A stretch of DNA of 63,208 nt, counting the filler, from Folioceros fuciformis (lineage: Eukaryota), in the NCBI GenBank assembly GCA_049999805.1. It is 5 parts of 3 records of this genome, joined end to end, with 100 filler letters (N's around TTAATTAATTAA, not from the genome) between each part and the next. Parts side by side here need not be neighbours in the genome. Positions count along the whole stretch, not along the records: positions 1 to 21,252 come from JBNGIO010005845.1; positions 21,353 to 38,238 come from JBNGIO010005845.1; positions 38,339 to 54,790 come from JBNGIO010005845.1; 2 more parts are not named here. One strand, given 5' to 3'. The translations under genes were made by a program, and so were the position numbers. Shown piece after piece: positions 2,487 through 52,430 of the stretch (positions are counted from its first letter, which is position 1; each line of letters begins with the position of its first letter). The notes under the pieces are model-generated. The model made no database searches. It was not told where the DNA came from and saw only the letters and a list, made by a program, of their open reading frames with translations.

Positions 2487-5400
2487 ATGCAAACTCCGCG
2501 AATGCGATGCATGTATGCCATGATTGTTGGGCGCGTTGCGTGTCATTGGCAGTCAGGCCCAAGACAACTCTGTATGACCAGAGGTATCCTAGGAAGTGCT
2601 GCCGCTCGGCTGAGTCCAAGGTGCCGCCTGATGGCCGACCGGGACGGTTCCAGGGGAGGAAGAAAGGGACGAGAACCTTCCAGCCACGGGAAACTCTTGT
2701 GGGGACAGTCTGTTCCGGACCAGGCACTCTGGTGGGACAGTAGGTCCCGTGCCGCCGACTGTGGGAAAAGGGCAAAGAGGAGGTCGAATGGAATTGAACC
2801 TCGCAGAACTGCAGGATACTTGACGGGGGCCACGGCTGAAATCGTGGACAAACTGTGTCGGGAAGGTGAGCTCAGTGAGGCCGTGAACGCTCTAGGTATC
2901 CTGGTAGACGCCGCCTTTCCTGTTTCCAGGTCCTTGTTCTACACTTTGCTCAAAACCTGCGGTGTTAAGAAGCATATAGCTCTGGGGCGCCGTGTTCATG
3001 CTCTGACCCTGAAAGCGGGGTATGTGTCGGACACGTTCCTGAGCAACCATATCCTGCGCATGTATGCTTCTCATGGACGGTTGCAGGAAGCGAGGGATGT
3101 GTTCACCATGGTTGTCCAGCCAGATGCCTTTATGTGGTCCTCTATTATCTCTGCGCATGTTCAACAGGGACAAGTCAAGGAGGGTGTACAGCTGTATCAT
3201 GATATGCGCAGGTCAAGTGTGAAGCCAGATGGGCATGTGTTCGTGGCAGCTCTACAGGCTTGTGCAAGAAGTGCAGATTTGGCATCGGGGCAGCAGGTGC
3301 ATGCTGATTTATTGGCGGGCGGCGGTCAGCCTCATTTATTTGTGTATAATTGCTTGGTAGATATGTATGCAAAGTGTGGCANNNNNNNNNNNNNNNNNNN
3401 NNNNNNNNNNNNNNNNNNNNNNNNNNNNNNNNNNNNNNNNNNNNNNNNNNNNNNNNNNNNNNNNNNNNNNNNNNNNNNNNNTTTATTTGTGTATAATTGC
3501 TTGGTAGATATGTATGCAAAGTGTGGCAGCTTGGCAGACGCTCAGAGGGTGTTTGACTTACTTCTTCGCAAAGATGTGGTGACGTGGAATGCCATGATGG
3601 GAGGATATTTCCAGCAAGGCAAGAATCAGGAGGCTCTTCGTTTGTACAGTTCTATGCGAGAAGAAGGGGTGACGTCACCTGATTCTGTAACATTTTGTTG
3701 CGTGCTGCAGGCATGTTCAAGTGTCGGTATCCCTGCTTTGGCAAAGGGGAAGCTGCTTCATGCCCAGATTGAAGAAGGAGGCCTTCAGTATGATGTGGTT
3801 GTAGGGAACAATTTGATAAACATGTATGTGAAGTGTGGCAGCATTGAAACGGCCCAGAACGTGTTCGACAGTCTTCCATTGAAGGATGTGGTGACATGGA
3901 CTGCTTTGATAGCAGGGTACTCCCAGCTAGGCATGGGTCAGGAAGCTCTTCGTCTTTTCCGTGCAATGGAACAAGGGGGCGCAGTTGCACCCAATTCTGT
4001 GACATTTGTGTGCCTCCTTCAGGCATGCGCAAGTGTTGGTGCTGAGGCCATGGAGACGGGAAAGCAGCTTCATGCACAGATGGAAGATGAAGGCCTCCAA
4101 TTGGATGTAACTGTAGGCAATAGTCTGATAAATATGTATGTGAAGTGCGGCATCCTGGAGAATGCCCAGAGCTTGTTTGATGGACTTCGTGACAAAGATG
4201 TGGTGACCTGGAGTGCTCTAATAGCAGGATATTGTCAGCATGGCAGAGTCGAGGAAGCTCTTTGTCTCTACAGTGCCATGCGAGAGGAAGGCATCTGTCC
4301 ACCCAATTCCGTAACATTTGTGTGCCTCGTACAGGCATGTGCAAGTGTGGGTATTGTGGCTTTGGAGAAGGGCATGCAGCTCCACGCTCAGGTTGAACAG
4401 CTTGGCCTTCAATCTGATGTGGTTGTTGCCAACAGTTTGATTAACATGTATGCAAAGTGCGGGAGCCTACAACATGCTCAGAGCATTTTCGATAAACTTC
4501 TGCAAAAGGATGTGATGTCGTGGACAGCTTTGATAGCAGGGTACACACAGCAGTGCATGGCTCAGAAAGCCCTTTGTCTTTACGTTGCCATGCAGCAAGA
4601 AGGTATGGCTCAACTAAATACTGTCACATTTGTTTGCCTCCTGCACGCATGTGCCAGTGTGGGTATCACAGCTCTGGACACTGGGAAGCAGCTACATGCT
4701 CAAATTGTACAACAAGGTCTTCAAGCTGATGTGGTTGTGGGCAATAGCTTGATAAACATGTATTCAAAGTGTGGCAGCCTACATCATGCGAGGAACGTGT
4801 TTGACAACCTCTCCCAGAAGGATGTGGTTACGTGGACTTCTCTCATAGCAGGTTATTCCCAGCGGGGCATGGGTTACGAAGCCCTTCATCTGTACAGCGC
4901 CATGCAAGACGAAGGCATTGCCCCTCCGGATGTTGTGACATTTGTGTGCCTCTTGCAAGCATGTGGAATTGTGGGTCCCCTGGCGTTGGAGAAGGGGCAG
5001 CAGCTCCATGCACATATTAAAGAGCTTGGTCTTCAGTGCAACTGTTTTGTAGCCAACAGTTTGGTCAACATGTATGCGAATTGTGGCAGCCTAGAGGAAG
5101 CCCGAAGCGTGTTTGAGGGTCTTGGCCAGAAAGATGTGGTGACCTGGACCACTCTGATAGCTAGATATTCCCAGCAGGGCAGGGATCTGGAAGCCTTTCA
5201 GCTTTACTATGCAATGCAGCAGGAAGGCATGAACGCCCCAAATGCTGTGACATTTGAGTGCCTGTTGCAGGCATGTGTAAATGTTGGGACGCCAGCTTTG
5301 GAGACGGGAAAGGAGCTTCATGCACAAATTCAAAAACAAGGCCTTGGAGCTGATTTGACTTTATGCAATCGGCTGATAAAAATGTATGCAAAGTGTGGCA

Positions 5401-6731
5401 GCCTGGGAGATGCCCAGGGTGTGTTTGACGGACTTCCCACGAAAAATTTGGTGACCTGGACAGCTCTGATTGCAGGCTACTTTCAGCAGGGCAGGGGTCA
5501 GGAGGCCCTTCATCTCCATAGTGCTATGCGAGACGATGGTATTCCTCCAACCAGTGCACTAACAATGGTGTGCACCCTGCAGGCATGTGCAACTGTGGGT
5601 ATCACTGCCTTGGAAACTGGAAAGCAACTTCATGCTGAGATTGCTGCCCAAGGCCTTGCATCTGATTTACTCGTAGCCAACTGTTTGATAAACATGTATG
5701 CCAAGTGTGGAGGCATACAGCACGCCCATAGCCTGTTGAACAGCCTTCCTCACAAAGATGTGGTGTCATGGACCACTCTGATAGCAGGATATTCTCAGCA
5801 GGGCATGGTTCAGCAAGCCCTTGATGTGTACAATGCCATGCGACAAGAAGGTATCACCACACCCGATTCTGTGACATTTGTGTGTCTCTTGCAAGCATGT
5901 GGGGATGTGGCAGCCTTGCATGTAGGAAGGCAGATTCATGCAGAAATTTATGAGCGAGGGCTTCAAGCTGATTTCGTTGTAGCCGTCAGTTTGATCGACA
6001 TGTATTCGAAGTCTGGAAGTACGGTTGAAGCACAGAAGGTCTTTGATGGATTGCCTGAAAGAGGCATAGTGGCCTGGAATGCGCTGATTGGAGGGTACTG
6101 CCGTGAAGGCAATAGCAAGCTGGTGTTTGCCTTGGCTAGCAGGATGATAGACGATGGTATACATCCAGACGGCATTACTTTTCTAAGCCTACTGGCAGTT
6201 TGCAGTCACGCAGGCTTAGTGAGCAAGGGACGAGAATACTTTTACGCTATGAGCCGATACCATGGCATCACTCCCACTGCGGAGCACTACTCATGCATAG
6301 TAGATCTCCTAGGCCGTGCTGGTCAACTTGATGAGGCACTAGCTGTTGTCAGGACAATGACTGAACAGCCTCACATTGCTGTCTGGCGCACTCTACTGGG
6401 TGCTTGTCAAAAGTGGAGCGCCGTAGAGACTGCGCGTCATGCTTTTAGCGAAGCAGTGAAGCTGAACCCACAAGATGCAGCAGCGTATGTACTGATGTCT
6501 AACATATATACAGGTGCCCACATGCAGGAGGAAGCCGAGGAAATGCAGGCAAGGAGACTGGAAATCGGGGCATGGAAGAAACCGGGACAGAGCTGGTGGA
6601 CTGACCCGGACGGTCTTGTGCACAGCTTTGTGGTCGCAGATATACAGCATCCTGACGGGGAAGTGCTTTCTGCTATGTCACACTCGTTTGAATTCAAGGT
6701 CCAGGATAACGCCACTAGTTTGACCTTCTGA
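2487..6731 (+). CDS. Intronless PLS-class PPR protein: ~33 PPR motifs, E1/E2, WW-type PG box truncated before the deaminase core (E+-like); degenerate N-terminal PDF motif
   Basis: 10 PLS triplets plus P2L2S2; ends KKPGQSWWTDPDGLVHSFVVADIQHPD with no HxE/CxxC; true start may be a downstream ATG; the N gap is flanked by a 47-bp false duplication. Confidence 0.93.
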   Translation: MQTPRMRCMYAMIVGRVACHWQSGPRQLCMTRGILGSAAARLSPRCRLMADRDGSRGGRKGREPSSHGKLLWGQSVPDQALWWDSRSRAADCGKRAKRRSNGIEPRRTAGYLTGATAEIVDKLCREGELSEAVNALGILVDAAFPVSRSLFYTLLKTCGVKKHIALGRRVHALTLKAGYVSDTFLSNHILRMYASHGRLQEARDVFTMVVQPDAFMWSSIISAHVQQGQVKEGVQLYHDMRRSSVKPDGHVFVAALQACARSADLASGQQVHADLLAGGGQPHLFVYNCLVDMYAKCGXXXXXXXXXXXXXXXXXXXXXXXXXXXXXXXXXXLFVYNCLVDMYAKCGSLADAQRVFDLLLRKDVVTWNAMMGGYFQQGKNQEALRLYSSMREEGVTSPDSVTFCCVLQACSSVGIPALAKGKLLHAQIEEGGLQYDVVVGNNLINMYVKCGSIETAQNVFDSLPLKDVVTWTALIAGYSQLGMGQEALRLFRAMEQGGAVAPNSVTFVCLLQACASVGAEAMETGKQLHAQMEDEGLQLDVTVGNSLINMYVKCGILENAQSLFDGLRDKDVVTWSALIAGYCQHGRVEEALCLYSAMREEGICPPNSVTFVCLVQACASVGIVALEKGMQLHAQVEQLGLQSDVVVANSLINMYAKCGSLQHAQSIFDKLLQKDVMSWTALIAGYTQQCMAQKALCLYVAMQQEGMAQLNTVTFVCLLHACASVGITALDTGKQLHAQIVQQGLQADVVVGNSLINMYSKCGSLHHARNVFDNLSQKDVVTWTSLIAGYSQRGMGYEALHLYSAMQDEGIAPPDVVTFVCLLQACGIVGPLALEKGQQLHAHIKELGLQCNCFVANSLVNMYANCGSLEEARSVFEGLGQKDVVTWTTLIARYSQQGRDLEAFQLYYAMQQEGMNAPNAVTFECLLQACVNVGTPALETGKELHAQIQKQGLGADLTLCNRLIKMYAKCGSLGDAQGVFDGLPTKNLVTWTALIAGYFQQGRGQEALHLHSAMRDDGIPPTSALTMVCTLQACATVGITALETGKQLHAEIAAQGLASDLLVANCLINMYAKCGGIQHAHSLLNSLPHKDVVSWTTLIAGYSQQGMVQQALDVYNAMRQEGITTPDSVTFVCLLQACGDVAALHVGRQIHAEIYERGLQADFVVAVSLIDMYSKSGSTVEAQKVFDGLPERGIVAWNALIGGYCREGNSKLVFALASRMIDDGIHPDGITFLSLLAVCSHAGLVSKGREYFYAMSRYHGITPTAEHYSCIVDLLGRAGQLDEALAVVRTMTEQPHIAVWRTLLGACQKWSAVETARHAFSEAVKLNPQDAAAYVLMSNIYTGAHMQEEAEEMQARRLEIGAWKKPGQSWWTDPDGLVHSFVVADIQHPDGEVLSAMSHSFEFKVQDNATSLTF

Positions 6732-15753: not shown

Positions 15754-18660
15754 TGTTAAACAAGTAGATATTAGTTGTTAGTACATTGCCTATACTCTTA
15801 GGGTTGTACCTTAGGTAGTTAGGGTTATCGTAGCAATTACAACTGCTAATGTCTGAGGACATATGTATAGTAGACCTTATTCTTAAATAACTAACTCTTT
15901 TGTGTGTGCATGTGTGTGGTCTGATCCATGCACTACAATGTTTTCATGGTATCAGAGCAAGGCGATTTTCCTGCCTTGCTCATCCTGATGGCTATTTGAA
16001 ATCGTCTTATATAATTGCCCAAAACATGTTTGCCTAAATGTTTTTATGGCAATTGAACAATATGTGCGCGGTTTGATGCGGTGGAGGCGAGATGCCTCGG
16101 AAGGGCGTCTGCAGGCAGGTGTGGCCAGTCTCTACTAGGAATAGCAAGGCTGGGCATCAATCTACTTCTGAATTGGAAAGTTTTGGAGAAGAATTTGAAC
16201 GAATGTATTTTAAGAAACAAATCTCCGCCAGTCAACCGGAAGAGCGGGTGCGTTTCTTGAAAGCATTTACTGCTTCCTATTATTCAGAACATTCTAGCTC
16301 CAATTCACTTGCCCAATTCAGAAATGTGGACAATTTAGACACCTCCTGCTGCCCAGCAAACTACAACTCACTGAAACAACAATCTGTAGAGTGTAGATCC
16401 TGTAAACCCTACTGTTCACAAGAAGATCTGAAACAATTTGACTCTCTCCTCAATTCTCTCTTAAATGTCAAGTCTTCTGTCTTGGAAACTTCACGAAGAG
16501 TAGACATTTTATCAAACCGCCTTGATCGCCTAGAGAAATTGCGGGAGTCAGAGTGCGTCGCTGCAGTAGGGGCAGAATTAGAAATCAAAGTCATAGGTCA
16601 AAGATTGACGAACTCAGGGAGAAGATGACTTGCCTGAGAACCCCTACTATGTAGTTCTCCTCATCACAGGCATCATGGCGGCAGATCAGTATTCTAACCG
16701 CTTACAGGAAAAAGACAGACTCACCCCTAATAATTTTGATGCCTGGTCTTTTCGGGTGAGGTGTATTCTAGAGGAGAAAATGCTTATGGATGTTGCTGAT
16801 GGCTCGATTCCACGGCGTGTTGCTGGTCAAGACTCTGGCACACTGACTCCTGGAGGAGTTAATAAGAAGCTGTGGACAGCCAAGGATGAGCTTGATTCTC
16901 CAAGGATCGCAAAGCAAGAACGATTCTAGTGGGATCAGTCTCTCATGAGATGATACCACATATCAAATTGACTAAATTCTCACTCACATGAGGTTTGGTC
17001 TTTGCTGAATGACACTTACGAGTCTAAGGATGTCATCTTAGAGGCAGCAGCAACAAGTCATTTTCAGAACCTACGCATGAAAGAAAGTGACTCAGTTGAG
17101 AGTCATGTGGCCAGGTTCAGAGCTGCAAGAGCCAAGTTAGCAGCTTGTGGAGTGATCTTATCTGAAGGGAGGGCAGCTATTTAGTTTCTGATGAGCCTCC
17201 CTCCAAGTTACGAAATTTGGAGCTCGAGTATTCAAGCTGCTGCCATTGTCACTCCAGCAACAACAACCACACCTACAGTAACAAACCTCACAGTTTAGAA
17301 GCTTGTTGGTGCTCTCTTACAAGCAGAGGCCAACAGAAAGCATATGAGCAAAGGAGGTTCAACCTCTACCCATAAACAGAGCGATACATCTCTTTTTACA
17401 GGCCGCGGCAGAAGTCGTGGAAGATTCAGGGGGCGAGGACGTGGAAGCTTTGGAAGAGGTAGAGGACACGCGTCCAACTACGAGTCTTCCAGCTTCAATC
17501 CATCGCAGCCCAGCAAGAAACCTCGTGTGTGCAATTACTGCCACAAGCCAAGTCATTGGGTCAGAGATTGCAGAAAGAAACAAAAAGATGACACTGGAAA
17601 GGGCAAGCAACATGAATCAAATGTTACAAGAGCTGCTACACCAGGACTGCTCGTTACCTGTTTATCTTCAATTTTGAAGGGTAGGAATCAGTGGTTTCTA
17701 GACAGTGGTGCGTCAAATCATATGTGTTCTTCTAGAAATAACTTTGTCAAGTATGTTGTATCTTCTCTCCAGCATGCAGTCGTCTTAGGGGATAATTCAC
17801 ATATACGCATTAAGGGAATGGGATCTGTTATTGTGACTCTGTACAATGGGAAAACATGGGAGTTAGAGAATGTTCTACATGTCCCAGCACTCAAGAAAAA
17901 TTTGGTTAGCACCATGGCCTTAGGTAAGACTGGTCAGTACAGTATTTTGTTTGAAGGACTAGAGTGTGCAATTACCAAGTTGAGTGCCCCTTCAGAAATT
18001 ATTGCTAGAGGTATACCGTTATGTGACCTGTATCTCTTGGATTTTGTCTGAGACCTGCCACAACAAACAGCTCAAGTATCTGAGTTTCCAGTCAGTAGAA
18101 CCAGGTTGCTTTTAGATGGCATTGTAGGTTAGGTCACCCCAATATTCAAGCAATGCGATGTCTTTTGAAGGAGAAGATAGTTACAGGTTTTTCAGAGTCT
18201 GACTTACCAGATCTTGATCTATGTGTCGCTTGCGTTCATGGAAAGCAGTTTAAGTCACACTTTGGTTCTGGGAAACCAAGAAAATCCTCAGAAGTGTTAG
18301 ACTTAGTTCACACTGATATTTGTGGTCCAATGTCGACTCCAAGCTGGGGAGGAGCAAAATACTTTGTTGTTTTCGAAGATGACAAAACGCACTTTACTGT
18401 CACTGAATTGCTAAAGCATAAAAAGCGATGTATTTGATAGTTTTAAGAGGTACCTGGCATATGTTGAACGTCAAACAAGTTATAAACTTAAGTGCATCCG
18501 TTCGGATAATGGGAAGGAGAACCTGTCTACAGCATTCCAGGAGTTTTGTCAAGAACATGGTATTACAAGGCAGCTGACTATTCCCTATCATTCTGACATG
18601 GATGGAAGAGTAGAGCGCTGACATAGAACAATCCAAGATGCTGCAAGGGCTCTGATACCA
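15754..18660 (+). mobile_element. Copia element A, 5' half: LTR (~15754-15946), PBS, leader ORF 16092-16628, disrupted gag-protease-integrase (~16675-18660)
   Basis: TG...CA followed by TGGTATCAGAGC; CNYCHKPSHWVRDC zinc knuckle, WFLDSGASNHM, HTDICGP; several in-frame stops; LTR start approximate. Confidence 0.9.
15947..15958 (+). promoter_or_regulatory. Primer-binding site, tRNA-iMet type
   Basis: TGGTATCAGAGC immediately after LTR-terminal CA. Confidence 0.9.
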
Positions 18661-25699: not shown

Positions 25700-27345
25700 A
25701 TGACTGCCGAGAAGAACTGTCGTGGCCAGATTATTTCCCAGGTCTCACGCAATGGTCGGAGAACAGTCAGGATGGTGAGCTCCCGCCATGCTGACTTCAG
25801 GCAGAAGAATGTCAAGGAGTGTCTTTGGCTGGACTGCCTCAATCACGTATGGGTGGGTGAGTTCTCAGCTAACCGGGTGGGATGCCAAGATGAAAGACCC
25901 CGCTGGGTCCTCAGATTTACACAGCACTGTGGCCCTGCGGATGAAGGGCATTGGATGATAAAACAATGCTGTGATGAAGGAGAGCCGAGAGAGGCCGTGG
26001 AAGCGTTGGAGGTCCTTGTGCAGGGAGAATTTCAGGTTAGCGACACACTCTTCTATCTTGTGCTGACAATGTTTATGGCAAAAGCTGATCTGACGCTCGG
26101 CAGTTGAGTTCATGGTCTTGTTCTCCAAGGTGGGCTCGAATCAAATGCACTTTTTGCTAACTAAGTCATTGTCATGTATGCCTCGCATGGGAAATTGGAG
26201 GAAGCAGTTCAGGCATTTCGCAAAGAGAGTGTACCGAATACGTACATGCGGTCTTTCATCACATTGTCACATGTGCGTCATGGGCGACCCATGAAGGCCA
26301 TCAACTTTTGCCGAGAAATGCGAGAAACAAGTGTGAAGCCGGACAAGCATAGATTTGTGGCAGTCCTCAGGGCCTGTGCCAGTAAAGAGGGGCTGGGGTT
26401 TGGCTTTGGCAAAGCTGGTTCATGCTGGTATTCCTGTGAATGCTCTCAAAGTTAACATCTATGTTGGCAACAGCCTGGTGAGCATGTACGCCAAGTGCAG
26501 CAGCTTGGAGGATGCTCGCAAAGTGTTTGACCGCTGCCCTCCAGAGATGTGGTGACCTAGACTGCCTTGATTGCTGGATACAGACAGCAGGGAGCTCGGG
26601 CGACAGGGCCTGTCTCGGTATGGTAGGATGCAGTAGCAGGGCATCACTCCTGCTGATCATCCTACGTTAGCTTGCCTCCTCCGAGCATGTGCCAGTTTCG
26701 GAGCACTGCAAGAGAGGAAGCTGCTCCATGCGCAGGTTCGTGAACAAGGATTTGAGACCATTTACGTAGTTGTCGCTAACTGCTTGGTGGATATGTACGC
26801 CAACTACGGGAGCCTTGAAGCTACTCGCAGAGTCTTTCATGTGTTGCCCTAATGGGATGTTGGTTCATCGAGTTCTTCCCAATGGCTTTGCTGAACACGG
26901 AAATGGCCATGGTTCTGAAGAGATTCTTCAGCATGGAGTGGAGCCTAATGGGACTACGTTTCTTCCCCTTCTAGAGCCATGCAGTCACGCGAAGTCTGCA
27001 ACCTGACTGCATGAGAAAAGAGGTCTGATATAGCGTCCAAGCTGGAGAGCCTGAATGAGGAGGACGGATGGCATTTGCCGCAAACAGAACTGGTGCTGAG
27101 ACAGTACCTTAGAAGGAAGAAGATGCACTGTGTGGCCACGCAGAGAAATTGGGTTTGGCATATGGCCTGCTCAACACTCCAGGCGGCAAACATTTACTGG
27201 TGACCAAGAATCTCGGCATGTGCAACGACTTCCACAGCAGCACCAAGATTTTGTCACGCATTGAAAGGTGAGAAATTGTAGTGAAATTGTAGTATGCTAA
27301 TAGAGTTCACCGGTTGCAGGGCCTGTCCTGCTCATGCCAGATGAC
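25700..27345 (+). pseudogene. PDF-PLS-PPR-DYW:KP pseudogene
   Basis: SRHADFRQKNVKECLWLD (PDF remnant), MYASHGKLEEA, YAKCSSLEDARKVFD, then CGHAEKLGLAYGLLNTP..VTKNLGMCNDFH; many stops and frameshifts, E domains deleted. Confidence 0.9.
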
Positions 27346-38583: not shown

Positions 38584-39966
38584 CTATGTACTCTTTTTTC
38601 TTCTAGTACGAAGAGTCATGCTGAAGTTTGGTACACAACGAACTTGTGATGTTGGCTTGTAGGTTGGGTCCTTTTCATCTTCATCACTTGAGATGCTTTG
38701 AGAATCACTGTGTACATTATGGGGTGAATTTCTTATCATCCTTTTCTTATTGGATTTTGATGTAGAACAAACTTGTGAGCTTAGCCTGTAGTTGGGATCC
38801 CTTTCATCTTCACCTCTTGCAATGCTTTCAGAATTATTGTGTTCATCAGGGATTGATCTTTCATTCATCCTTTTCCTTTTCCTTGTGGTACATGGTATCC
38901 TTTCATTGGCATATGTCTCTTGATCCCTGCGAGGACTTAATCTCTTTATCTGATCAAGGAAATAACTTCCTAATTTTTCATCAGATAGAGATTCAAATTG
39001 AAAATTCATATATAGAATGTATTGATCTAGAGGCAAATTACATACTTTGCTAAGACCATCAAAAAGAGGATGTTTTAAAGCTTGCTTTGCAGTTATTCTA
39101 TCGTCGGGGCGAAAAGCAAGTAGTTGTCTAAGCAATGACAAAGCACAGGGATCGACTTTTGAAAATTGAAATTCAAAAGCATTGTTTAGCTGTAAGTTTG
39201 CTGTACCCGGTTCAACTTCATAAAAGCTCTCAATAACTCTGATTTGGTGTTCATTTCCATGATGACCTTCTCCTCTAAATAAAACTCCTCGTTGCAATAT
39301 TTCGGCGAAGATGCATCCTATGCTCCACATATCAATTGCTGATGTATAATTTGCTACATTATCTGTACAAAGCTCTGGTGCACGATAATATTGAGTTACA
39401 AAATTAAGACCTTGTCTTTTGCTTAGTGTGAAATCGTCTGTTGCAATTAATCGAGCTGACCCAAAATCACCTATTTTGAGAACACCTGCAGGATCTATTA
39501 GTATATTTCCTGGCTTCAAGTCTCTATGGATAATATGTGCTTCATGTAAATAGGCCACTGCTTGAAGTATTTGAAGCAACAAATATCTCTGTCTTTCAAA
39601 AGTATACTCTTGAATATACCATAGCTCTCGATATAGATCATGGTTCATCAATTTTGTAACGATGTACACATCATTTACCCTTTTTAAAGGTGGAAAGAAT
39701 ATTTCTTCTAATTCAATGATATTTGGATGTTTTAATAGTTGTAGGAATGTTATCTCGCGTATAATCGGGATGATTAGGGAGCGACACCACTCGTTAAAAT
39801 GTATTTTTTTAATAGCCACATGTTGACCAATTCTTAAATCTATTGCAGCACAGACTTGTCCAAAACTTCCTTTTCCTCTCTCTTGAATCAGACGATACCT
39901 ACACTGCTTATAATCTTTCCAAAAGTTTGAGTGATAGTCTTCTGATAATGTCCCCTGTTGAACCAT
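38584..39966 (-). CDS. Intronless, AT-rich divergent MAP kinase-like protein (group D-like) lacking the canonical TxY
   Basis: GKGSFG, VAIKK, HRDLKPGN, DFG, YRAPEL, DMWSIGCIFAE; basic/acidic tail with an internal duplication. Confidence 0.85.
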   Translation of the reverse strand: MVQQGTLSEDYHSNFWKDYKQCRYRLIQERGKGSFGQVCAAIDLRIGQHVAIKKIHFNEWCRSLIIPIIREITFLQLLKHPNIIELEEIFFPPLKRVNDVYIVTKLMNHDLYRELWYIQEYTFERQRYLLLQILQAVAYLHEAHIIHRDLKPGNILIDPAGVLKIGDFGSARLIATDDFTLSKRQGLNFVTQYYRAPELCTDNVANYTSAIDMWSIGCIFAEILQRGVLFRGEGHHGNEHQIRVIESFYEVEPGTANLQLNNAFEFQFSKVDPCALSLLRQLLAFRPDDRITAKQALKHPLFDGLSKVCNLPLDQYILYMNFQFESLSDEKLGSYFLDQIKRLSPRRDQETYANERIPCTTRKRKRMNERSIPDEHNNSESIARGEDERDPNYRLSSQVCSTSKSNKKRMIRNSPHNVHSDSQSISSDEDEKDPTYKPTSQVRCVPNFSMTLRTRRKKST

Positions 39967-41099
39967 TTTGCTTGCCTTCCAATTTGTGCCTTCTTTCTTG
40001 TATCCACAAGATGTTGATGTTCTGCAACAAGGATCTCCTCAATTAGAAACTTAGGTACCCTGCACAAAGGATCCTTGAGGATACACAAGAAAAAGTAGGA
40101 CTATTTGAAACCTAGACTTCAACCTACCTTTGAGGGCNNNNNNNNNNNNNNNNNNNNNNNNNNNNNNNNNNNNNNNNNNNNNNNNNNNNNNNNNNNNNNN
40201 NNNNNNNNNNNNNNNNNNNNNNNNNNNNNNNNNNNNNTGCCAAGGACCTTGAAACCCTCTTGCTGATTTGCAAAGATCAAGCACCCCTAGTTGTCTTCCA
40301 GACGATGAAGGACTCTTAGAAAAATCCTCAAGAAAATTCAAAGGCCAAGGACTTTGAACGCCTCCTCGTGATTTGCAAAGGCCATGGATCTCTCGTTGTC
40401 TTCCAAACGCCGCAAGATAAGCACTTATAAGCACAGCTCTCCCACCATAGCTCCTTACTCGCACACTTCCTTGTAGTATATTGCTTCTTCTCAATGCACA
40501 AAATATGAAAAACGACACAAGTCTTAGAGACTCTAAGGCCTTAATATAGCTCTAGGAGACTATGCCGATATAGTACTAAGATGTGGACTACAAGTCTTAA
40601 TATAGTAGTAACTGCTAATAGACATATATAGTAGGATACATAAATAACACTAACCCTCAACCTAATTATCTTATCGTCCGCTTTTTTCAAACTAAAGAAA
40701 AGACAAAGGACAAGGACTCCTTTGTCTCACTATTTATAGACCACAGCGGATGCGGACCACAACGTCTCGTAGTAGTAGTAAGTGCTACTATACGTAAATA
40801 CTACATACTATATACTAGGATGCATAGTTACCACTAAACGCTAAACCGAAAGGACAAGGACAAAGAACAAGGACTTCTACCTATCATGATGGCTATTAAG
40901 GGTGGCCTTAGGAAAGCTCCTTTTTCTCAATCTAGTCTCCCATATTTGGAAAAAAAGAGAGGATTTTTTAAAGAAAAAAAAGAATCCTTTTAATCTTGAA
41001 GTAGATATGGTCAATTAAAAGCATTTTTTAAGAATAATGCCTTTCATAGTTTCAAGGAAAAGTACTTCTTGTAGTATAAGAGGTGAGGTTTTGAGTAAT

Positions 41100-41597: not shown

Positions 41598-44500
41598 ATG
41601 TCCTCTTCGTCTACCTCAGGTGGACCTGTAGGAATGTGGGACGCAATTCAGTTCCGCTGCCATGACACCGGTAGCGGAGGAATGGGATTGTGCAGGGAGG
41701 CCAAGACGTGGTCTGGAGTGGTGGCGGGAATGTATCATCTGAGGCACCGCCGGGCCGGAGAGACACCAGGAGTATGCGTGGCCATCTCCACTACAGGAGA
41801 CTGGATGAAGCGGGTGTTCTCTGGATCCTCTGGATACTACAAGAGTGCGAATCATCCCGACCGAGCTGAGCTTCTGTCTGAGGTAGTTTGCGAAATGTGC
41901 GATAGTCCAGGGTTGTGTTGTAGTGAAAGGTTCACATTGTGACGTCCCTCGGTGTTGCTCTGGCAGGCAAGGTTTAGCCGAGAGTTGGAATGGCACCGTA
42001 CTAACTATGATCGAGTTGGTGAGATTGAGCCGCCGCCGATTTTCCCGTTTTGGCGGAAGCAGGAGTTCGAGGCTCGGTCTTTGACTAGAAAGGTTCTCGA
42101 GCTTACCAGGAAGAGGCAGCTCAATCAAGTACGGGTTTCCTCTATTGTTTGGAATATTGCACCGGCATGAAGTTAGGAGAACCCTGACAGTCAGCGTCAC
42201 CTTCTCGACAGATTTTGAAGTTGGTGGAGACAGCCAAACAGGAGAGATACGAGCTGCACAGAATAACTATGAATGCGGTGATGGAGGCTTGTGTGCATTG
42301 TAATGACACGGACCGTGCCATAGGCATTTTCGAGGAGATGCTACGCCCGGGTGCCTGTGGTGTTGATACTGTAACATATGGGATCCTAATAAAGGTCTGC
42401 TAAGGCTTGCAGCATTGCTTGTCTGCTGTTTGTGTGTGAGGGGAAGCCATGTGTTGGCTTACTGTCTTTGAGTCTTAGTCTTTGCTCTTGATGTGCAGGG
42501 CCTAGGGCAAGCGAAAAGACTGAGTGATGCGTTTCTCGTATTTGAAGCAATTGAGAAAGGCACGGCTCCAGGAGCTCCCAAGTTGTCGGATGTTCACCTC
42601 AATACTCTAGTGAATGCATGTGCCGAGGCAGGTTAGTTTCAATCTGCATCCGTTGTGCGTTCTGTCTCGCTCTCCTCGGTATCTGTCCGAGATGTGAATG
42701 CTAATATGACGGCCTTCTTCTTCAGTTCTGACCTGATTAGGTTGTTCCGAACAGGAGAATCTCTGCGTGCACGGGGTATACTTCTTAGGTATCGGTCCTC
42801 GGTTGACCAGTCAGGACCATCCGCTTTCACCTACAACCTGCTGATTAAGGTAGTCCTGTTTTTCTACACGCTGCCATTCTGCAATTTTTGCCAGTTGGGG
42901 ATCCTGATGAGTGGCATTGTCCTAGGGATATGCAAGATCGGACAATCCTCTGGAGGCTCTGAAGGTGATCGATGAGATGCGTTCCAATGGCTTGGAACCG
43001 CAGCAGTTGACTTATAACTCTCTTATTCTGGCTTGTGTCCGGGGCGGGGACACACCGAAAGCCCTTGATTTTTTGAGGCAAATGAAGGTTGGTATGCAAG
43101 ATTACAGTAAGCTTGGTCCTGGCACATACCCCCTCTCAGCTCAAAGTCCGAAGTAACGAATTTTGTGATATCTCAGGAGGAAGCGAAGAGGCTGAATTCT
43201 CCAGAAATGCTTCCAGATGTTGTAACATATACCACTCTAATAAAGGTCAGTGGGGTTGACTTTTCTTTGGAAGAATGTGCTCTTCTTGTCGTTCCTACCG
43301 GGCTGCACCTTATTCTGTCCGGTTATCCTGTTCAGGGTCTTGCTTCGAATGGCGATCTTCAAAAGGTTTTGGATATGGTGGATGAAATGAAACAGACACC
43401 AGCATGTGTATTGGATCGTGTTGCGTATACAGCGATCATCGACGCCTGCATAGAGGCTGGATCACCCAGACGTCAGTGTGCCACCCTGTACACGGTCCAT
43501 TCTTCCTGAGGTTGGCTGTGTAAACCTTGCGTGTGTTCAAAGTAGCTGACAGATTTTGTCGTCATGCAGAGGGCTTCATAATGTTGCAAGAGTTGAAGGA
43601 GAAGGGGCAGGAAAATCCTGTTCTCAGACCAAGGGCTCATGTGTTTCTTGCTCTGATGAGAGCTTTTGCCGATGAAGGTGATGTTGAGATGGTGACCTCG
43701 CTGAGAGAGCGTCTAATACCGGAGGCTGCGGGGTTTGTTTGGCCTGAGGAGCGTGCAGAAGCAGATGAGCTACTGATGGAAGCTGCCGTTGCTGCAAGGC
43801 AGGTAAAACGATGAAGTCATTTATCCCTCGTTTCTTCTCACCTCAATGACGGCTAACCTAACGAGCTGTCTTGTTTCAAACAGCTAGGTCTAGCAAAACA
43901 TGTGCTGCGAACGATGGTCGGTCTGAAGAAAGGCATCCCTCTGACAAGACGCGCCTACATTGTGAGTCCTACCGACCCAACGAAGGTGAATATGCATGTA
44001 GTAAGCAATTTACTATACCATCGGTATTAGGCCTACCGTTGTTTTGCAGGCCGTTGTCCGATTGCAAGCACTCACAGATTTCAAGGAAGACATCTTCAGC
44101 CCGCTTCAGCTGCGGGTGCGTTTAAGTCTCTGTTGCTTGCATTGCCGTCCTAGTGCGCGTTGAACGCTATCGTGACTCAACCACCTGCCTTTCCGGCTTA
44201 CAGGTTCCACCGAGCGAGAGCGTGGAGAGGGTAATGTTGCCCTTCGCTGAGGCAAACACCGTCTCTGAAGACCTTAAGGTGGCAGATGTAGCATTTCGAT
44301 TTTTCAGAGAAGATGTGATACCCGTCGTGGACAAAGCAGGAGCATACGTTGGTTCTGTTCACTGCCGAGACTGCACCGAGGTACATCTCACTTATCTTTG
44401 CTATGCACGCAAAGTTTCGGTATTGGAGCTATTGTTGATCTCCCCTGTGACTGGGGATGTGCACAGATGGATGCCCGGTTAGGCGACCTGAAGAAAAGAA

Positions 44501-44730: not shown

Positions 44731-44774
44731 ATTATGGGACCGGTGTGTGGAGACAAAGCAGGAGCTGGGCCGGC

Positions 44775-45317: not shown

Positions 45318-45559
45318 CAAGCTGTCACCTGCAATTGGCTGATGTATTGGCTGATGGTTGTAGTGAATGATAGAAATTATACGTTGTGTGGCCCAACCCG
45401 AACCTCAAGTAAGGCTTGTTGATATGGGATTCCTGGACCACAGCTTCAGTGCAGCCAGTAAAGATTTAAGCCAAGCTTGAAGATTGAACAGTTCTTAAGG
45501 GCGGGCTTGGTACGTGGAGAGCAGCAGCTGAATGATGTATGATAATTGAGGTGTCTGTC

Positions 45560-45907
45560 AAATGAGGATCCCCGCACAAACAGGACTTGGGGTGCGTCTC
45601 AGACTAGAGTGTCCCGCGCCTCAAGACGTGACATAATCTTGGTGCTACTGTGGCGGTCACTGCACATCGGGCACAAGGAACCTTCCTTCGCCTGCTCAGA
45701 CACTGCTCTTTACATCTTCCAAGCCCTTGCGGAGTTCCGCAGACTTCCGATATCGTCCACGTCCTTCCACCTGCCGACGTTTGCATCGATATTGCCCAAG
45801 AGCACATATGGACTTGCACTTTGAGGCTCCAGTTTCACAAGGCGGTCGAAGCATCTCCGTCCTCGCTCGGCATCATCATGGGTTTTGCAGCCAGTCAGCA
45901 GGGCTCT
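45560..45907 (-). pseudogene. Decayed E1/E2/DYW tail of the 45908-47917 gene
   Basis: In frame after the stop: RALLTGCKTH...PYVLLGNI...RWKDV, stop, then MCSDRHSSTKIMSRLE. Confidence 0.85.
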
Positions 45908-47917
45908 CTAGCCCACCACATTGCCCTCAGAAGGTGCGGTCTGCAAGATGCGCTCTGCCTCATCCACCCGGCCTGCCCGCCCGAGAAGATCCGTCATGCA
46001 GCTGTGGTGGTAGTCGGAGGGTAAAATCTTATGCTCCTCCATCATCTTGAAATACCGCTGTCCCTCATCCACCAGTCCGGCGTGACAGCAGGCAACAAGG
46101 AGGGAACTGAAAGTAATCTCGTTAGGCTCAAATCCCTGCTCACACATGTCCTCGAAACACCGTATGGCCATTGCAGCGTTGCTGTCTTCTGCATAACCTT
46201 TGAGAAGGGCATTCCATGCCACCACATCCTTGGTGGACAAAGTGTCGAAAACGGAACGAGCCTCCTCCAAACTCCCACACTTTGCATACATGTTCACCAG
46301 GCTGCTGCCGATGGAGACCTCTTGTTCCAGGCCTTGTTTCCGAATGTGTGCGTGAAGCTCCTTGCCCGTCTGCAGCGCCCCGGCACTCGCACATGCTTGC
46401 AACAGGCAAGTGAACGTAACAGCATCATCGACACTGAGCCCCTCCTGCTGCATACTCCTGTACAACAACAGGGCTTGCTGGCCCATACCCTGCTGGGCAT
46501 AGCCTGCGATCATGGCAGTCCATGTGACCACATCTCTTGTGGGCAACTTGTCAAACACTGTGCGAGCATCTTCCAAGCTCCCACATTTTGCATACATTTC
46601 CACCAAGCAGTTACCCACAATAGCATTCCCTTCCATCCCACCTTGTCGAACCTGCGCGTGCAGCCGCTTTCCCTGCTTAAGATCGCCCACACTCGCACAA
46701 GCTCGAAGAAGGGCTACAAAAGTCACATTGTTGGCTCTCGTCACACCCTCCTTTCGCATGCTCTCATACAGGGCCAAGGCTTCCCTGCCGAGTCCCTTCT
46801 GCGTATAGCCTGAAATCATAGCAGTCCACGTTACCACATCCTTGGTGGCCAAGTTGTCAAACACTTTCCGAGCATCTTCCAAGCTCCCACACTTGGCGTA
46901 CATGTTAATCAGGCTGTTTCCGACAAAGATGTTGATTCTCACCGAACTCTTGGAGATGTCCTCATGAACCAGCTTCCCAGAAACCAGATCCTCTCCACTG
47001 GCACAAGCCTTCAGCACAGCTACAAAGATGTGATTATCCGGCTTCACCTTCGTCTCCCTCATCTCTCGGTAAAACCTCATCGCCTCCTTGGGCTGCCCTT
47101 TCCGGGCATGTGCCAGAATGATAGAAGACCACGTATAGGCATCTGGAGCACTCACCTTCCCAAAAGCCTGCACTGCCTCCTCCAACTGTCCATGAGAAGC
47201 ATACATGCCTATAATGTGGTTCGCCAGGGACGCGTTCCCCTGCAGACCGACTGTCCGAACAAGAGCATGCACCCGCCTACCAAGCCTTAGATCCCTTTCT
47301 TCCACGCACATTCTCAACACCCTACGGAAAAGAACCTCACGGATATGACATCCTCTCTGCACCAGGACCTCCAATTCCTCCACGGCCTCCCGCACCTTCC
47401 CCTCCTCGCATAATTTATTCAGCGTTTCCAGCTCAGAATCTCCTTCCCCTCCGCGCCCAACACCATTTTCTGTTCCGGGAATAGGTGCCACCCCGGATGG
47501 CGAGCCCAGCTGCGAATCCACCCACCCCGGCTTGCAGCGGCTACGCAGCCACAGCCCCTCTTTGGACGTCTTGTGCCTGAAGTCAGGATGGCGGGGGCTT
47601 CTCTTGTCCTCCCTGTTGTCCCACCATTGCGCTGGATCCGAGAAATACTCCTGCCACAGGAGCTCCTCCCGTTCCTTCCTGGGCAGCCCTTCCACAATAT
47701 AGTTCTCTGCAGAGGAAGCTGGCCGTGCCTCACCCCCCAACTTGGTTGATGCAAAGCTGTGGCACGCGAATCCGCCATCAATCGCTGCACATTGCTTGCC
47801 TCCCACCATAGGATCAGGCTTCCATGGCCCCCGCAGCTTGATGAGCGCAGCACGGGAGTCCGAAAATCCCGAATTGGACAACGGCAGTAACAGGGGCAGG
47901 TCCAGTGGCATCGCCAT
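45908..47917 (-). CDS. PDF-PLS-PPR protein truncated at the start of E1 by a TAG (likely from TGG)
   Basis: PDF motif WQEYFSDPAQWWDNREDKRSPRHPDFRHK..LWL..PGWV; intact PLS array through S2; first ATG at 47917. Confidence 0.85.
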   Translation of the reverse strand: MAMPLDLPLLLPLSNSGFSDSRAALIKLRGPWKPDPMVGGKQCAAIDGGFACHSFASTKLGGEARPASSAENYIVEGLPRKEREELLWQEYFSDPAQWWDNREDKRSPRHPDFRHKTSKEGLWLRSRCKPGWVDSQLGSPSGVAPIPGTENGVGRGGEGDSELETLNKLCEEGKVREAVEELEVLVQRGCHIREVLFRRVLRMCVEERDLRLGRRVHALVRTVGLQGNASLANHIIGMYASHGQLEEAVQAFGKVSAPDAYTWSSIILAHARKGQPKEAMRFYREMRETKVKPDNHIFVAVLKACASGEDLVSGKLVHEDISKSSVRINIFVGNSLINMYAKCGSLEDARKVFDNLATKDVVTWTAMISGYTQKGLGREALALYESMRKEGVTRANNVTFVALLRACASVGDLKQGKRLHAQVRQGGMEGNAIVGNCLVEMYAKCGSLEDARTVFDKLPTRDVVTWTAMIAGYAQQGMGQQALLLYRSMQQEGLSVDDAVTFTCLLQACASAGALQTGKELHAHIRKQGLEQEVSIGSSLVNMYAKCGSLEEARSVFDTLSTKDVVAWNALLKGYAEDSNAAMAIRCFEDMCEQGFEPNEITFSSLLVACCHAGLVDEGQRYFKMMEEHKILPSDYHHSCMTDLLGRAGRVDEAERILQTAPSEGNVVG

Positions 47918-48119
47918 CTCGTCTCGCCCGTCGGTGCTGGGAAACCTTCGGCACGCCGCCTCCCTCAAGCTGTCTTTCGTCTCTTTACCGCGGAAAACCT
48001 CGTCTCTTTACAGCGGAAAACCTCGTCTCTGGTGTTGGAGGATTAAGGCAATGGCTCTTCAGAAACTCACATTAACGAGTCGTTTTCTCAGACAGCGCTG
48101 GTCTAGCAGTTTGGGAGAC

Positions 48120-49479: not shown

Positions 49480-49740
49480 GACAAGTGATCTGCGCTCGGC
49501 AGATCGTGGGAAGTACTGCGCTAAGTTTGCAAAACGTTCGCTCTGCATACACAGACTTGTTTGTTGGCAACACATTCATGCGTAAGTGGATGTGCGAAGC
49601 GAGAACATCGAGGATGCTGAACAGGTGTTTGATTCCGGCGAAACGCAGGGCCTGCACTGCCGTGACTGCAGCAACACGGTCAGCAAGGTCAACGACTCAG
49701 ACGCTTTGCATCTCTATGCCGAGATGCAAGCACCAAGGTT
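49480..49740 (+). pseudogene. Short PLS-PPR remnant
   Basis: DLFVGNT..., IEDAEQVFD, DALHLYAEMQ across frames. Confidence 0.55.
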
Positions 49741-49812
49741 GAACCATAGCAACGAGAGGAAGCAATATTGTCTAGCATGCATACTGCAGCAACGGGTATT
49801 CCTTCGTTGTTC

Positions 49813-49960
49813 TCACGGTCGATCCTTACAACTGCGAAAACCAACTGCAAACCGATGCACACGGTACCCATCCCTTACGACAACGTTTCTCTGTTCGACC
49901 CTTAACGAATCTCCGTGGCACCGTGGCAGTCGCTGCACAAGCGATGCATGCTCCAGGTGA
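49813..49960 (-). pseudogene. Tandem partial duplicate of the DYW:KP 3' end of the adjacent gene
   Basis: EQRNVVVRDGYRVHRFAVGFRSCKDRP versus EQRDIVVRDGYRVHRFAGGFCSCKGRA. Confidence 0.9.
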
Positions 49961-50033
49961 AAATTCACATGAAGGTTGCCACCCGCAACAAGAAAAATTG
50001 CGAACACTTGCCCATCTGGGTACTCTATTTTTC

Positions 50034-52430
50034 TCACGCTCGACCCTTGCAACTGCAGAAACCACCTGCGAATCGATGCACACGGTACCCATCCCTTACG
50101 ACGATGTCTCTCTGTTCAATCCTTGACAGGATCTCCGTGGAAGTGTGGCAGTCGCTGCACATGCGTAGATTCTTCGTTACCAACAGGGGTGTCCCACTCG
50201 GAGTGTTCAACAGACCAAACGCCAGAGCAAGCTTCTCAGCATGTCCACAAAGCATATCCTCCTTTTCCTCTTCAGACAATGGCTTCAAGACCAACTTTGT
50301 GTGAGGTTCATGGCCTCCTTCCTGCTTCACACGTGCTTTCGTGCTCTCCACCTGAAGAGCGATATCCTCTCTCCTTTCTCCCACCGTAAACCTATGTAGG
50401 TCCTTATTCACCTCAATGGTTGCCACTGCATTTTTTTTGTCAGCTCCTGCTAACCTTCTCCGTGTTTCTATCCTATCTACATCAGTCCACCTACCGGCAT
50501 CTGCATAGGCATTGGCCATCAGCACATACGCCGGTGCCTCCTGTGGGACCAGCCTGACAATGCTTTCAAAACAACGCAGCGCCCTCTCTATATCCCTGTA
50601 CATTTTGCAGGCATTCAACAAGGTCCTCAAGCCCACAACATTACTTTGGTCCTCACATGACAAAAGCATCTTCTCAGCCTCGTCTAAATGGCCTGCCCGC
50701 CCAAGAAGATCAACCATGCAGGTGTAATGCTCAATAGTGGGTTTGATGCCATGCTGTGTAGCCATGGAATCAAAGTGCTTGCGACCCTCCTGGACCAGCC
50801 CCCCATGACTGCATGCGACTAAAAGGCAGGTAAAAGTAGCACCATCAGGTTGGATACCGGCATCTAACATCTCCTCAAAACAAGCTAGTGCTCTGTGAGC
50901 ATCGTCACAAGTACCATACGCAGATATCAGCGCCGTCCAGGTAACTGAGTCCTTCGAGGCCATGCTGTCAAACACTTGGCGGGCATCTTCCAGCTCACCA
51001 CATTTTGCATACATGTCAACTAGGCAGGTGCCCACCAGTATGTCACTCAGGAGTCCTTTTTTGACAATCTGCGAGTGCAGATCCCTACCTTTTTGTAAGG
51101 CACCAGTGCTTGCACAGGCCTTTAGAAGGCAAGCAAAAGTAAAATGGTCAGCCAAGACCAGCCCCTCCTGCTCCATTCGTGCATACAAAAGCAGTGCCTC
51201 ATGTCCGAGCTCTTGATCGGCATAGCCAGCAATGAGCGCCGTCCATGTCACTACATTCTTGGTGGGCATTCTGTCAAAAACCAGGCGTGCATCTTTCAGT
51301 TCACCACATTTTACATACCCAGACACCAGCGCCGTCCATGTCACTACATTCTTTGTGGCCATGTTGTCAAACACCTGGCGTGCCTCTTTCACTTCACCAC
51401 ATTTTGAGTACATGTCCACCAGAGAGGTGCCAACAAACAAGTTATCCGGAATGCCACTCCGCAACACATCACAGTGAACATTTCTGCCGGATTCCAAGTC
51501 GGCCGCAACTGCACAAGCTTGAAGGGCAGCTACAAAAACATGAGCATCTGCCTTCACTCCTGACCTACGCATCTCGTGGTACAGCTGGATGGCCTCCTTA
51601 GGCTTCCCATGTTTGGCATATGCAGAGATGATTGAACCCCACGTGATAACATCTGGTTTGCTGACCCTGGTGAACACATCCTTGACCTCCTCTAGCCTGC
51701 CACCACATGCATACATTCGCAGGATATGATTCCCCAAGTACGCATTCGATCCGGACCCCAGTTTGACGCTGAGGTTATGAACTCGTCGCCCCGCAACCAG
51801 ATCCTTCTTGACTGTACACAGTTTCAGCACAGTGCAAAACAGAGACACAGGAATGACGGAGTCTGTCTGCGCAAGAGCTTCCAGGGCTCTAACGGCATCA
51901 GAAAGCTTCCCCTCCTGACAGAACGTGTTCACGATAGCTGCCGTGACGACACCAATTCCCCATCCTGCGCGCCTGCCAGTTTCCAGCTTATCTGGTGACC
52001 TGGACTTGGAAGGAAAGGCTCCGCGGCCCATCTCCATATCCGAGGCAACCAGCTGTTCATCAACCCAAGCTGGCTTCAACAAGTCTTTTACCCACAGCAC
52101 CTCCCCGGACCCCTTACGACGGAAGTCAGGCGATCGAGACCTCGTCTTGTCTCGTCTGTTGTCCCACCACCTGGTAGGCTCCAGAAACAATTGTTGCCAC
52201 AATTGCTCCTGCTCTTGCTGCTGGCGACGGCCATCGCTAGATAACCCGTCCCCACCCACACACTTTTTGGGAAGTGGAGATGATCGGCTCCTGACACTGC
52301 TGCACCTGGAGGGTTGCTTGTTTGCCGGGGATTGACTTCCTGAGGTGAGGTGAGCGGGAGCGCCTGGTAGAATCCCTGTGCGAACACCGATTTGTTGGGA
52401 CCACAACACTCCCCGCGCGCATCGACGCAT
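50034..52430 (-). CDS. Intact PDF-PLS-PPR-E1-E2-DYW:KP (GRP-type) protein; candidate organellar U-to-C RNA editing factor
   Basis: R/S-rich transit-like N-terminus, PDF motif, 13 PPR motifs, KNAVATIEV box, LVLKP, CGHAEKLA, MCSDCH, ends CSCKGRA. Confidence 0.95.
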   Translation of the reverse strand: MRRCARGVLWSQQIGVRTGILPGAPAHLTSGSQSPANKQPSRCSSVRSRSSPLPKKCVGGDGLSSDGRRQQQEQEQLWQQLFLEPTRWWDNRRDKTRSRSPDFRRKGSGEVLWVKDLLKPAWVDEQLVASDMEMGRGAFPSKSRSPDKLETGRRAGWGIGVVTAAIVNTFCQEGKLSDAVRALEALAQTDSVIPVSLFCTVLKLCTVKKDLVAGRRVHNLSVKLGSGSNAYLGNHILRMYACGGRLEEVKDVFTRVSKPDVITWGSIISAYAKHGKPKEAIQLYHEMRRSGVKADAHVFVAALQACAVAADLESGRNVHCDVLRSGIPDNLFVGTSLVDMYSKCGEVKEARQVFDNMATKNVVTWTALVSGYVKCGELKDARLVFDRMPTKNVVTWTALIAGYADQELGHEALLLYARMEQEGLVLADHFTFACLLKACASTGALQKGRDLHSQIVKKGLLSDILVGTCLVDMYAKCGELEDARQVFDSMASKDSVTWTALISAYGTCDDAHRALACFEEMLDAGIQPDGATFTCLLVACSHGGLVQEGRKHFDSMATQHGIKPTIEHYTCMVDLLGRAGHLDEAEKMLLSCEDQSNVVGLRTLLNACKMYRDIERALRCFESIVRLVPQEAPAYVLMANAYADAGRWTDVDRIETRRRLAGADKKNAVATIEVNKDLHRFTVGERREDIALQVESTKARVKQEGGHEPHTKLVLKPLSEEEKEDMLCGHAEKLALAFGLLNTPSGTPLLVTKNLRMCSDCHTSTEILSRIEQRDIVVRDGYRVHRFAGGFCSCKGRA

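Follow-up and report, generated by a model that had tools for sequence, protein, structure and literature searches.

The PDF motif of the plant organellar single-stranded DNA (ssDNA)-binding proteins OSB1-OSB4 is said to go back to Zaegel et al. in 2006. The present analysis concerns this motif in a different setting, at the N-terminal end of four genes or gene remnants for PLS-class pentatricopeptide repeat (PPR) proteins, the loci L1 to L4. They lie in a 63,208-nucleotide stretch of Folioceros fuciformis DNA (the window, which is nuclear plant DNA with N-filled assembly gaps), all four in parts of the record JBNGIO010005845.1.

Passages of three reviews describe the motif as a segment of about 50 residues with a Pro-Asp-Phe signature, located C-terminal to the central SSB-like domain of OSB proteins (PMC6963530, PMC4166229, PMC6451138). 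As stated in parts of two of them, AtOSB1 needs no more than its PDF motif to bind ssDNA, and OSB1 and OSB2 prefer ssDNA over double-stranded DNA or RNA (PMC6963530, PMC4166229); a passage of the first also reports AtOSB2 as tetramer-forming (PMC6963530). The second described system that is close to these loci is the DYW:KP class of PPR proteins. In its GRP subgroup, according to sections of PMC9478123, HAE replaces the HSE of the active site, a KP-type box replaces the PG box, and the protein terminates in GRP. DYW:KP proteins are regarded as candidate U-to-C editing factors in passages of two papers (PMC9478123, PMC11845758). Among PPR proteins joined to other domains, RRM-PPR, MORF and OZ fusions have been surveyed in parts of PMC13386178.

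The PDF motif in four PLS-PPR loci

It is confirmed that an OSB-type PDF motif precedes the first PPR repeat in all four PLS-PPR loci of the window, as the initial annotation had proposed. Three lines of evidence establish this: a general profile built from 337 PDF domains of public proteins and run over 2411 six-frame pieces of the window, tblastn within the window with the intact PDF modules of L3 and L4 as queries, and comparisons of the leaders with shuffled sequences. The loci and their copies of the motif are as follows (bits and expectation values, E, are those of the 337-domain profile).

2487..6731 (+), L1: PLS-PPR open frame of 1414 codons, spanning a 100-N gap at 3382-3481
2694..2750 (+), half PDF motif of L1, LLWGQSVPDQALWWDSRSR, with the core and the second half gone
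~25708..27340 (+), L2: dead PLS-PPR pseudogene, with a KP-like DYW tail at 27113-27340
25708..25855 (+), PDF remnant of L2, its halves 25708-25785 and 25778-25855 in different frames
45599..47968 (-), L3: PDF motif and PLS-PPR array, open for 686 codons
47504..47671 (-), intact PDF motif of L3, 86.3 bits, E 1.1e-25
50034..52430 (-), L4: the sole fully intact gene of the four, 798 codons
52047..52214 (-), intact PDF motif of L4, 74.7 bits, E 4.7e-22

The copies in L3 and L4 are intact, as annotated. In both loci the PDF motif and the PPR repeats are found within one uninterrupted frame, and the two copies match each other by tblastn with E 1.35e-20 and 52% identity. In addition, contigs from two samples and two studies are identical over 45500-46289, 46876-47596, 47572-47935 and 51816-52600, which means that neither the L3 stop codon described below nor either of the intact motifs is an assembly error.

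L2 had been read as a frameshifted remnant, and this is what it is. Its second half (25778-25855, +) reaches 20.0 bits and E 5.7e-5 against the 337-domain profile, while the first half, in another frame (25711-25767), is the fourth-best piece with 5.3 bits and E 2.2 and is collinear with the second. When the window PDF copies are used as queries, tblastn recovers both halves in two frames with E 5.5e-7. When the DNA is aligned with that of L3 and L4, a gap of 2 bases falls at the frameshift, and L2 reads ADF in place of PDF. The expectation that degenerate copies would still align to a PDF profile thus holds for the second half of L2 and fails for L1, whose half motif alone is not significant (3.6 bits, E 7.4).

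The eroded half motif of L1 is nevertheless recognizable by comparison with its neighbours. Searched by tblastn, the first half is found with E 1e-3 from the L3 copy and 0.049 from the L4 copy. Aligned with its L3 and L4 counterparts, the whole L1 leader has a local score of 60, against 31.9 +/- 5.4 and 30.3 +/- 5.1 for shuffled sequences; the score was reached by 1 of 2000 shuffles in each of the two comparisons. Both flanks of the missing segment appear in the alignment of L1 with L4, namely LW...WWD.R on one side and, just ahead of the first repeat, E.RR.AG...TA.IV..C.EG on the other, the PDF core of about 35 residues relative to the L4 leader being deleted. The pattern WWD.R occurs three times in all six frames, at L1, L3 and L4 only, and each time it stands 8-12 residues after a W.

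The motif is followed in all four loci by the first-repeat cassette that had been annotated there, its GxRVH part being broken in L2. The cassette is no companion of the motif in particular: it also occurs in proteins without PDF (P0155 and P0169, for example) and is simply the first repeat usual in this PLS clade. No other PLS-PPR locus is present in the window. With the PPR part of L4 as the query, tblastn matches L1 to L4 and one further place, a P-class PPR gene, in which a PDF motif was not found (42188-43814, +). Two other PDF-like matches, at 41955-42014 (E 0.24) and 44950-44876 (E 0.014), had no support from the 337-domain profile and were rejected.

Gene state and class of the four loci

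L4 comprises, in this order, a presequence-like leader, the PDF motif, a linker, the PLS-PPR array, an E motif (PF20431, E 2.8e-11) and a KP-type DYW domain. It is the only one of the four in which the PPR array, the E motif and a DYW domain with HxE and CxxC are complete. Two features belong to its 3' region.

50043..50315 (-), DYW deaminase domain of KP type in L4 (PF14432, E 7.6e-34, residues 706-796)
49819..49997 (-), orphan degenerate KP-like DYW tail fragment, 40-215 bases downstream of the L4 stop codon

The active site of L4 reads HAE (CGHAEKLA), a KP-type feature, and the protein aligns with the HAE group, relatives ending in GRP and in DRH among them. It is close to the GRP-type relative P0157 and not identical to it, with KKNAVA where P0157 has KKPAMA and with GRA instead of GRP at the end. 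As a KP-type protein, L4 is a candidate for U-to-C editing activity. The orphan fragment looks like the leftover of a duplication or of an unequal exchange.

The tails of L2 and L3 resemble that of L4. In L3 the frame is closed by an in-frame TAG at 45908-45910, where L4 has Leu and L1 has Trp; an E remnant of 65 codons (45710-45907) and then a frame-shifted scrap of a DYW tail (45599-45709) come after the stop, most of the E2/DYW region being deleted. L2 has at least five stops along its length, its best tblastn piece alone holding five, and three or more frame changes, its pieces falling in frames 3, 1, 2 and 3.

L1 is the only PG-type copy in the window, and it is the one with half a PDF motif. 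It contains about 14 PLS triplets and ends soon after a PG-type box, KKPGQSWW; its tail aligns with the PG group, HP insertion included. Neither an HxE/CxxC deaminase centre in the frame nor a DYW remnant downstream of it was found. Both flanks of the gap at 3382-3481 carry the same 15 residues, LFVYNCLVDMYAKCG, and the 100 N's probably mark a place where two contigs overlap in a repeat and were left unjoined, with no sequence missing.

In the first cassette, identity is 59% between L1 and L4, 50% between L3 and L4 and 46.5% between L1 and L3; at the C-terminal end the corresponding values are 47%, 50% and 40%. The two ends of L1, L3 and L4 show no clear conflict in relatedness.

Summed over contigs of at least 90% likeness, depth amounts to 515-813 in run X1 over the L4 leader and PDF motif (51899-52372). 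The stretch of raised depth, which takes in the leader, the PDF motif and the first repeats, extends over 51425-52372, with flanking single-copy bins at about 13-18. The bins of the L3 PDF motif have depths of 15-44, and contigs break off within the L4 PDF core at 52141. Another run, X3, which may be of RNA, covers DNA between genes as well. This depth, which is no copy number, hints that the genome holds many young paralogues at least 90% like the L4 N-terminus.

Relation to the OSB motif

A second profile, made from the L3 and L4 copies, was searched against 1.84 billion representative proteins. It gave 940 matches at E<=1e-3 and 368 at E<=1e-10, many of them with 2-13 copies of the motif. 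When 28 of the 150 listed matches were scanned with Pfam, three proved to have an SSB domain with C-terminal PDF, 11 had PPR repeats, one a kinesin motor, and 13 no family or a spurious one. The three proteins of the first kind (P0014, P0038 and P0054) carry PF00436 (SSB) and then PDF copies. Since a profile made only from window copies matches proteins in which SSB and PDF are combined, the motif is the OSB one: by sequence, that of the window and the PDF copies of OSBs are of the same motif family. L1, L3 and L4 are not OSB genes, because they have no SSB-like OB fold; the SSB family was not found in L3, in L4 or in the N-terminal part of L1 at E<=0.01.

Pfam has no model for PDF. The module alone was unmatched there at E<=10, and an OSB-like protein matched SSB only. 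It follows that domain surveys of the Pfam kind would miss the motif. OSBs are not the only proteins marked by the motif, which is a mobile module found well beyond them. P0005, P0006, P0007 and P0044 comprise long PDF arrays (13, 9 and 11 stretches, with no credible Pfam family) and a kinesin-motor protein.

Predicted fold and constraint

An AlphaFold2 model of L4 residues 66-300, computed with 24 other PDF-PPR proteins, has a mean predicted local distance difference test score (pLDDT) of 90.2. In the numbering of the model, a helix (2-18), two short strands (23-25 and 38-40) and a second helix (57-71) are predicted with pLDDT 93-97; residues 72-88, the linker, fall below 50, and the PPR helices come after them. 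The same elements are obtained for the PDF motif alone (46 sequences, pLDDT 88.4, predicted template modelling score 0.75). The motif is thus predicted to be a compact mini-domain of about 55-60 residues, helix / small beta / helix, that a disordered linker of about 20-45 residues would tether to the first PPR repeat. A prediction of self-association from two copies of the module scored 0.06, which speaks neither for nor against it. A sequence search of the PDB gave no match at E<=1, and the ESM Atlas gave no usable one.

Ten positions are invariant in 25 PDF-PPR proteins from distantly related plants (L3, L4 and 23 others): W13, W23, D25, R27, K30, P36, D37, F38, W48 and P55. The comparison of nonsynonymous (dN) and synonymous (dS) substitutions suggested for the PDF segment was possible only in part, dS between L3 and L4 being saturated or undefined (2.39, or -1), and dN only was compared. 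It is 0.37 in the PDF motif, 0.45 in the first cassette and 0.34 in the middle of the PPR array, versus 1.13 in the linker and 1.32 in the leader; between these two loci, PDF evolves as slowly as the PPR repeats. In living genes the module is under constraint. On average, a PPR-linked PDF domain (50 sequences) carries a net charge of +1.9 and 9.0 aromatic residues, compared with -0.6 and 7.4 for the 369 other PDF domains.

Distribution and origin of the fusion

The description of the motif as a family-level N-terminal module is upheld well outside the window. PPR proteins make up 13 of the top 150 listed PDF representatives (blastp), with 1-3 PDF copies that always stand ahead of the PPR array; one of them is KP509_09G038200 of the fern Ceratopteris richardii. 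The motif is also present, at E<1e-5, in 27 of the best 120 PPR relatives of L4, a share that is not a prevalence, as it is biased upward by the choice of candidates from words of the first 500 residues of L4, PDF included, and downward by several gene calls that start inside the PPR array. The 27 carriers break down into Diphasiastrum complanatum (19 of its 29 proteins), Calypogeia fissa (4/4), Sphagnum fallax (1/1), Logan (2/25) and JGI (1/5). The named carriers, taken over both sets, represent four plant groups: lycophyte, liverwort, moss and fern. With L4 residues 40-200 as the query, the word index offered 882 candidates, none at E<=0.001, a result that reflects the limit of such an index; a further search of this kind gave one hit among 144 candidates. 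P0160 has a second PDF motif in mid-protein and looks like two tandem genes merged in annotation.

The remaining 93 of the 120 relatives are without PDF. They include 19 eukprot proteins with the prefix 'Gb_', 8 of Adiantum, 3 of Cryptomeria, 20 from ENA and 2 of Ceratopteris, together with 1 of Ceratodon, 1 labelled Balamuthia and 2 others. The 'Gb_' proteins we take to be from Ginkgo, from the prefix alone.

The motif crosses the classes of editing factor, as had been claimed from the four loci. Of the 27 carriers, 11 have HSE...DYW, one HAE...GRP and one HAE...DRH, and 14 show no detectable DYW centre; over all 120 relatives, PDF is found in 11 of 59 HSE proteins and 2 of 15 HAE proteins. 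Since both HSE and HAE proteins carry it, the module spans the PG and KP classes and is not tied to the direction of editing.

It had been left undecided whether the fusion predates the split between these classes or spread by recombination. It is simpler to place the origin before the PG/KP split, and thus before the KP type, because a liverwort and a moss carry the fusion. The tree does not separate vertical descent from later shuffling: in a FastTree analysis of 419 PDF domains over 59 columns, the PPR-linked copies do not form a single clade, so that a single origin is not supported by the tree. The same copies require 10 state changes, versus a mean of 48 for shuffled labels (minimum 44 of 500), a comparison in which kin share labels. 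Judged from this distribution, PDF-PPR is a real domain architecture, old and widespread, in which PDF is a facultative N-terminal module.

Decay of the motif

The four copies had been arranged as a decay series, with the module dispensable in some members. The four loci do not show this. L3 and L4, whose 5' parts are intact, have an intact module; it is broken in the pseudogene L2 and half removed by an internal deletion in L1. Because L2 is dead, L3 keeps a perfect PDF motif in a gene whose 3' part is dead, and L1 lacks the deaminase as well, decay of the PDF motif mostly follows decay of the whole gene. Only L1 bears on dispensability, and it does so ambiguously.

A graded series of selective losses, with a module that working members can do without, is improbable, although some observations speak for it. 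L1 has kept a frame of 1414 codons without the PDF core, relatives with a decayed motif exist, and most PLS relatives have no PDF motif at all. Against this, L2 is dead everywhere and not in the PDF segment in particular; L3 has a perfect motif ahead of a broken 3' part; and L1, being without the DYW deaminase part, may itself be decaying or changed in role. The low dN of the PDF motif between L3 and L4, equal to that of the repeats, is also at odds with selective loss. One of the relatives in question is P0272, a KP-like PPR protein of 791 residues in which the first half of the motif is recognizable (E 0.084) and the core is lost; it resembles L1, and partial loss of PDF therefore recurs outside the window.

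Proposed function

The best explanation overall, and one we hold to be fairly probable, is that of an old PDF-PPR subfamily of editing factors in which the PDF motif would act as an accessory grip on single-stranded nucleic acid; homology, architecture, conservation and distribution are shown by the results above, and this function we infer. L1 to L4 are neighbouring members of one subfamily of PLS-class PPR genes for RNA-editing factors, whose members start with a presequence-like leader, followed by one OSB-type PDF motif. A PPR array binds RNA with its N-terminal end facing 5', and the DYW domain works immediately 3' of the segment that the array occupies. An aromatic and basic mini-domain that is flexibly tethered at the N-terminus could, in such an arrangement, reach nucleic acid 5' of the PPR target. 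By analogy with OSB proteins, PDF would most likely hold single strands there irrespective of sequence, either the RNA 5' of the target or ssDNA of the nucleoid, and this grip would strengthen binding or bring the editing factor to the sites of emerging transcripts.

Several observations weigh against this explanation. In passages of PMC4166229, OSB1 and OSB2 prefer ssDNA to RNA, which makes RNA binding by the module an extrapolation. Foldseek found no relative of the predicted fold (best E 5.2), hence no structural relative that would indicate a mode of binding, and the best VIA-align hit (Z 4.3 over 55 residues, root-mean-square deviation 3.4) was to generic helical rows. With 93 of the 120 relatives lacking PDF, most PLS proteins work without it; the upward bias of the share of carriers and the lack of a single PPR-linked clade in the tree count on the same side.

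The main rival to a nucleic-acid grip is docking to other proteins. PDF would then be a piece for protein-protein contact or oligomerisation that meets OSBs or partners in the editing complex and does not bind nucleic acid. The variety of contexts in which the motif is found (arrays of up to 13 stretches, after SSB, before PPR, on a kinesin) is what one sees with interaction modules, and AtOSB2 tetramers have been reported in a passage of PMC6963530. We consider docking unlikely, however: sections of the OSB reviews assign ssDNA binding to the motif itself (PMC6963530, PMC4166229, PMC6451138), and the invariant tryptophans, the phenylalanine and the basic residues would suit stacking on bases.

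A more specific form of the nucleic-acid grip concerns the land plants that have no MORF proteins, in which PDF may have been the original helper of PLS editing factors, lost in seed plants when MORFs took over. It would grip the single strand beside the PPR target or at transcription bubbles of the nucleoid, with editing taking place as the transcript emerges. Carriers of the fusion are lycophyte, fern, liverwort and moss proteins and the loci of the window, whose KP-type DYW domains with GRP-like ends and compact gene spacing suggest a hornwort. The fusion was absent from the 22 seed-plant proteins sampled (the 19 'Gb_' proteins and the 3 of Cryptomeria), and MORFs are restricted to seed plants, as is commonly held and as parts of PMC13386178 state. 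We regard this historical scenario as quite doubtful.

That the resemblance is due to chance or to an artefact of assembly or gene models (OSB-like and PPR genes merged, or a low-complexity match) is hardly credible, for although the half motif of L1 scores E 7.4 with the general profile and P0160 seems to be a merger of tandem genes, matches of E 1e-25 and 5e-22 lie inside single uninterrupted frames, a second sample from another study has identical contigs, and the same order of parts recurs in named genomes of four plant groups. For L2, L3 and L4 this reading is already refuted.

Other features of the window

The P-class gene is a fifth PPR gene of the window and is multi-exon (42188-44482, +); its PPR part (42188-43814) is followed by a CBS domain (PF00571, E 1.4e-4). 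It has introns, versus none in the four PLS loci. An intact Ty1/copia polyprotein of 1322 codons is encoded at 55298-59266 (+), and further copia fragments (integrase, RVT_2 and Pol beta-barrel) are found at 16092-21246, between PPR loci. Pieces of RING-H2, kinase, GT28/ALG13-like and MDHAR genes are also present.

At 38584-39966 (-) there is an intronless protein kinase frame of 460 codons (Pkinase, E 1.3e-55). It sits in an island of 33% G+C, versus about 50% in the rest of the window, with N runs on either side (38239-38338 and 40138-40237). The island may be a scaffolding insert or foreign DNA.

Comparison with known systems

No description of a PDF-PPR fusion was found in the literature searched. 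The main texts of a kingdom-wide survey of editing factors from 2026 (PMC13386178) and of the Anthoceros angustus genome paper (PMC7027989) contain neither 'PDF motif' nor 'OSB'.

PPR editing factors are becoming programmable RNA base editors, including U-to-C editors derived from DYW:KP proteins, and these are built from nothing but the PPR array and the DYW domain. In bryophytes, lycophytes and ferns, many natural editing factors bear a conserved N-terminal PDF motif that is predicted to be well folded. The motif would add a new component to the editing machinery of precisely the plants without MORF helpers, and its role is easy to probe by deletion, by swaps and by measurements of binding.

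PPR-SMR proteins and PRORP are PPR proteins with accessory domains. Like them, the window loci associate a PPR array with a second domain linked to nucleic acids; they differ in that this partner is the PDF motif, which is absent from Pfam. With the DYW:KP proteins of hornworts, lycophytes and ferns (subgroups GRP and DRH), L4 shares the PLS array, the E motif and a DYW domain with HAE. It departs from the GRP type in having KKNAVA for KKPAMA and GRA for GRP, and in its PDF module, which is not mentioned in the sections of PMC9478123 that describe the class. With OSB1-OSB4 the loci have in common the motif of about 50 residues and its Pro-Asp-Phe signature. The OSB reviews, in their passages on the motif, treat it as a part of OSBs and do not name other host proteins (PMC6963530, PMC4166229, PMC6451138). 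In the window, by contrast, the motif comes without the SSB-like OB fold and stands as a single copy at the N-terminal end, ahead of a PLS-PPR array and a DYW domain.

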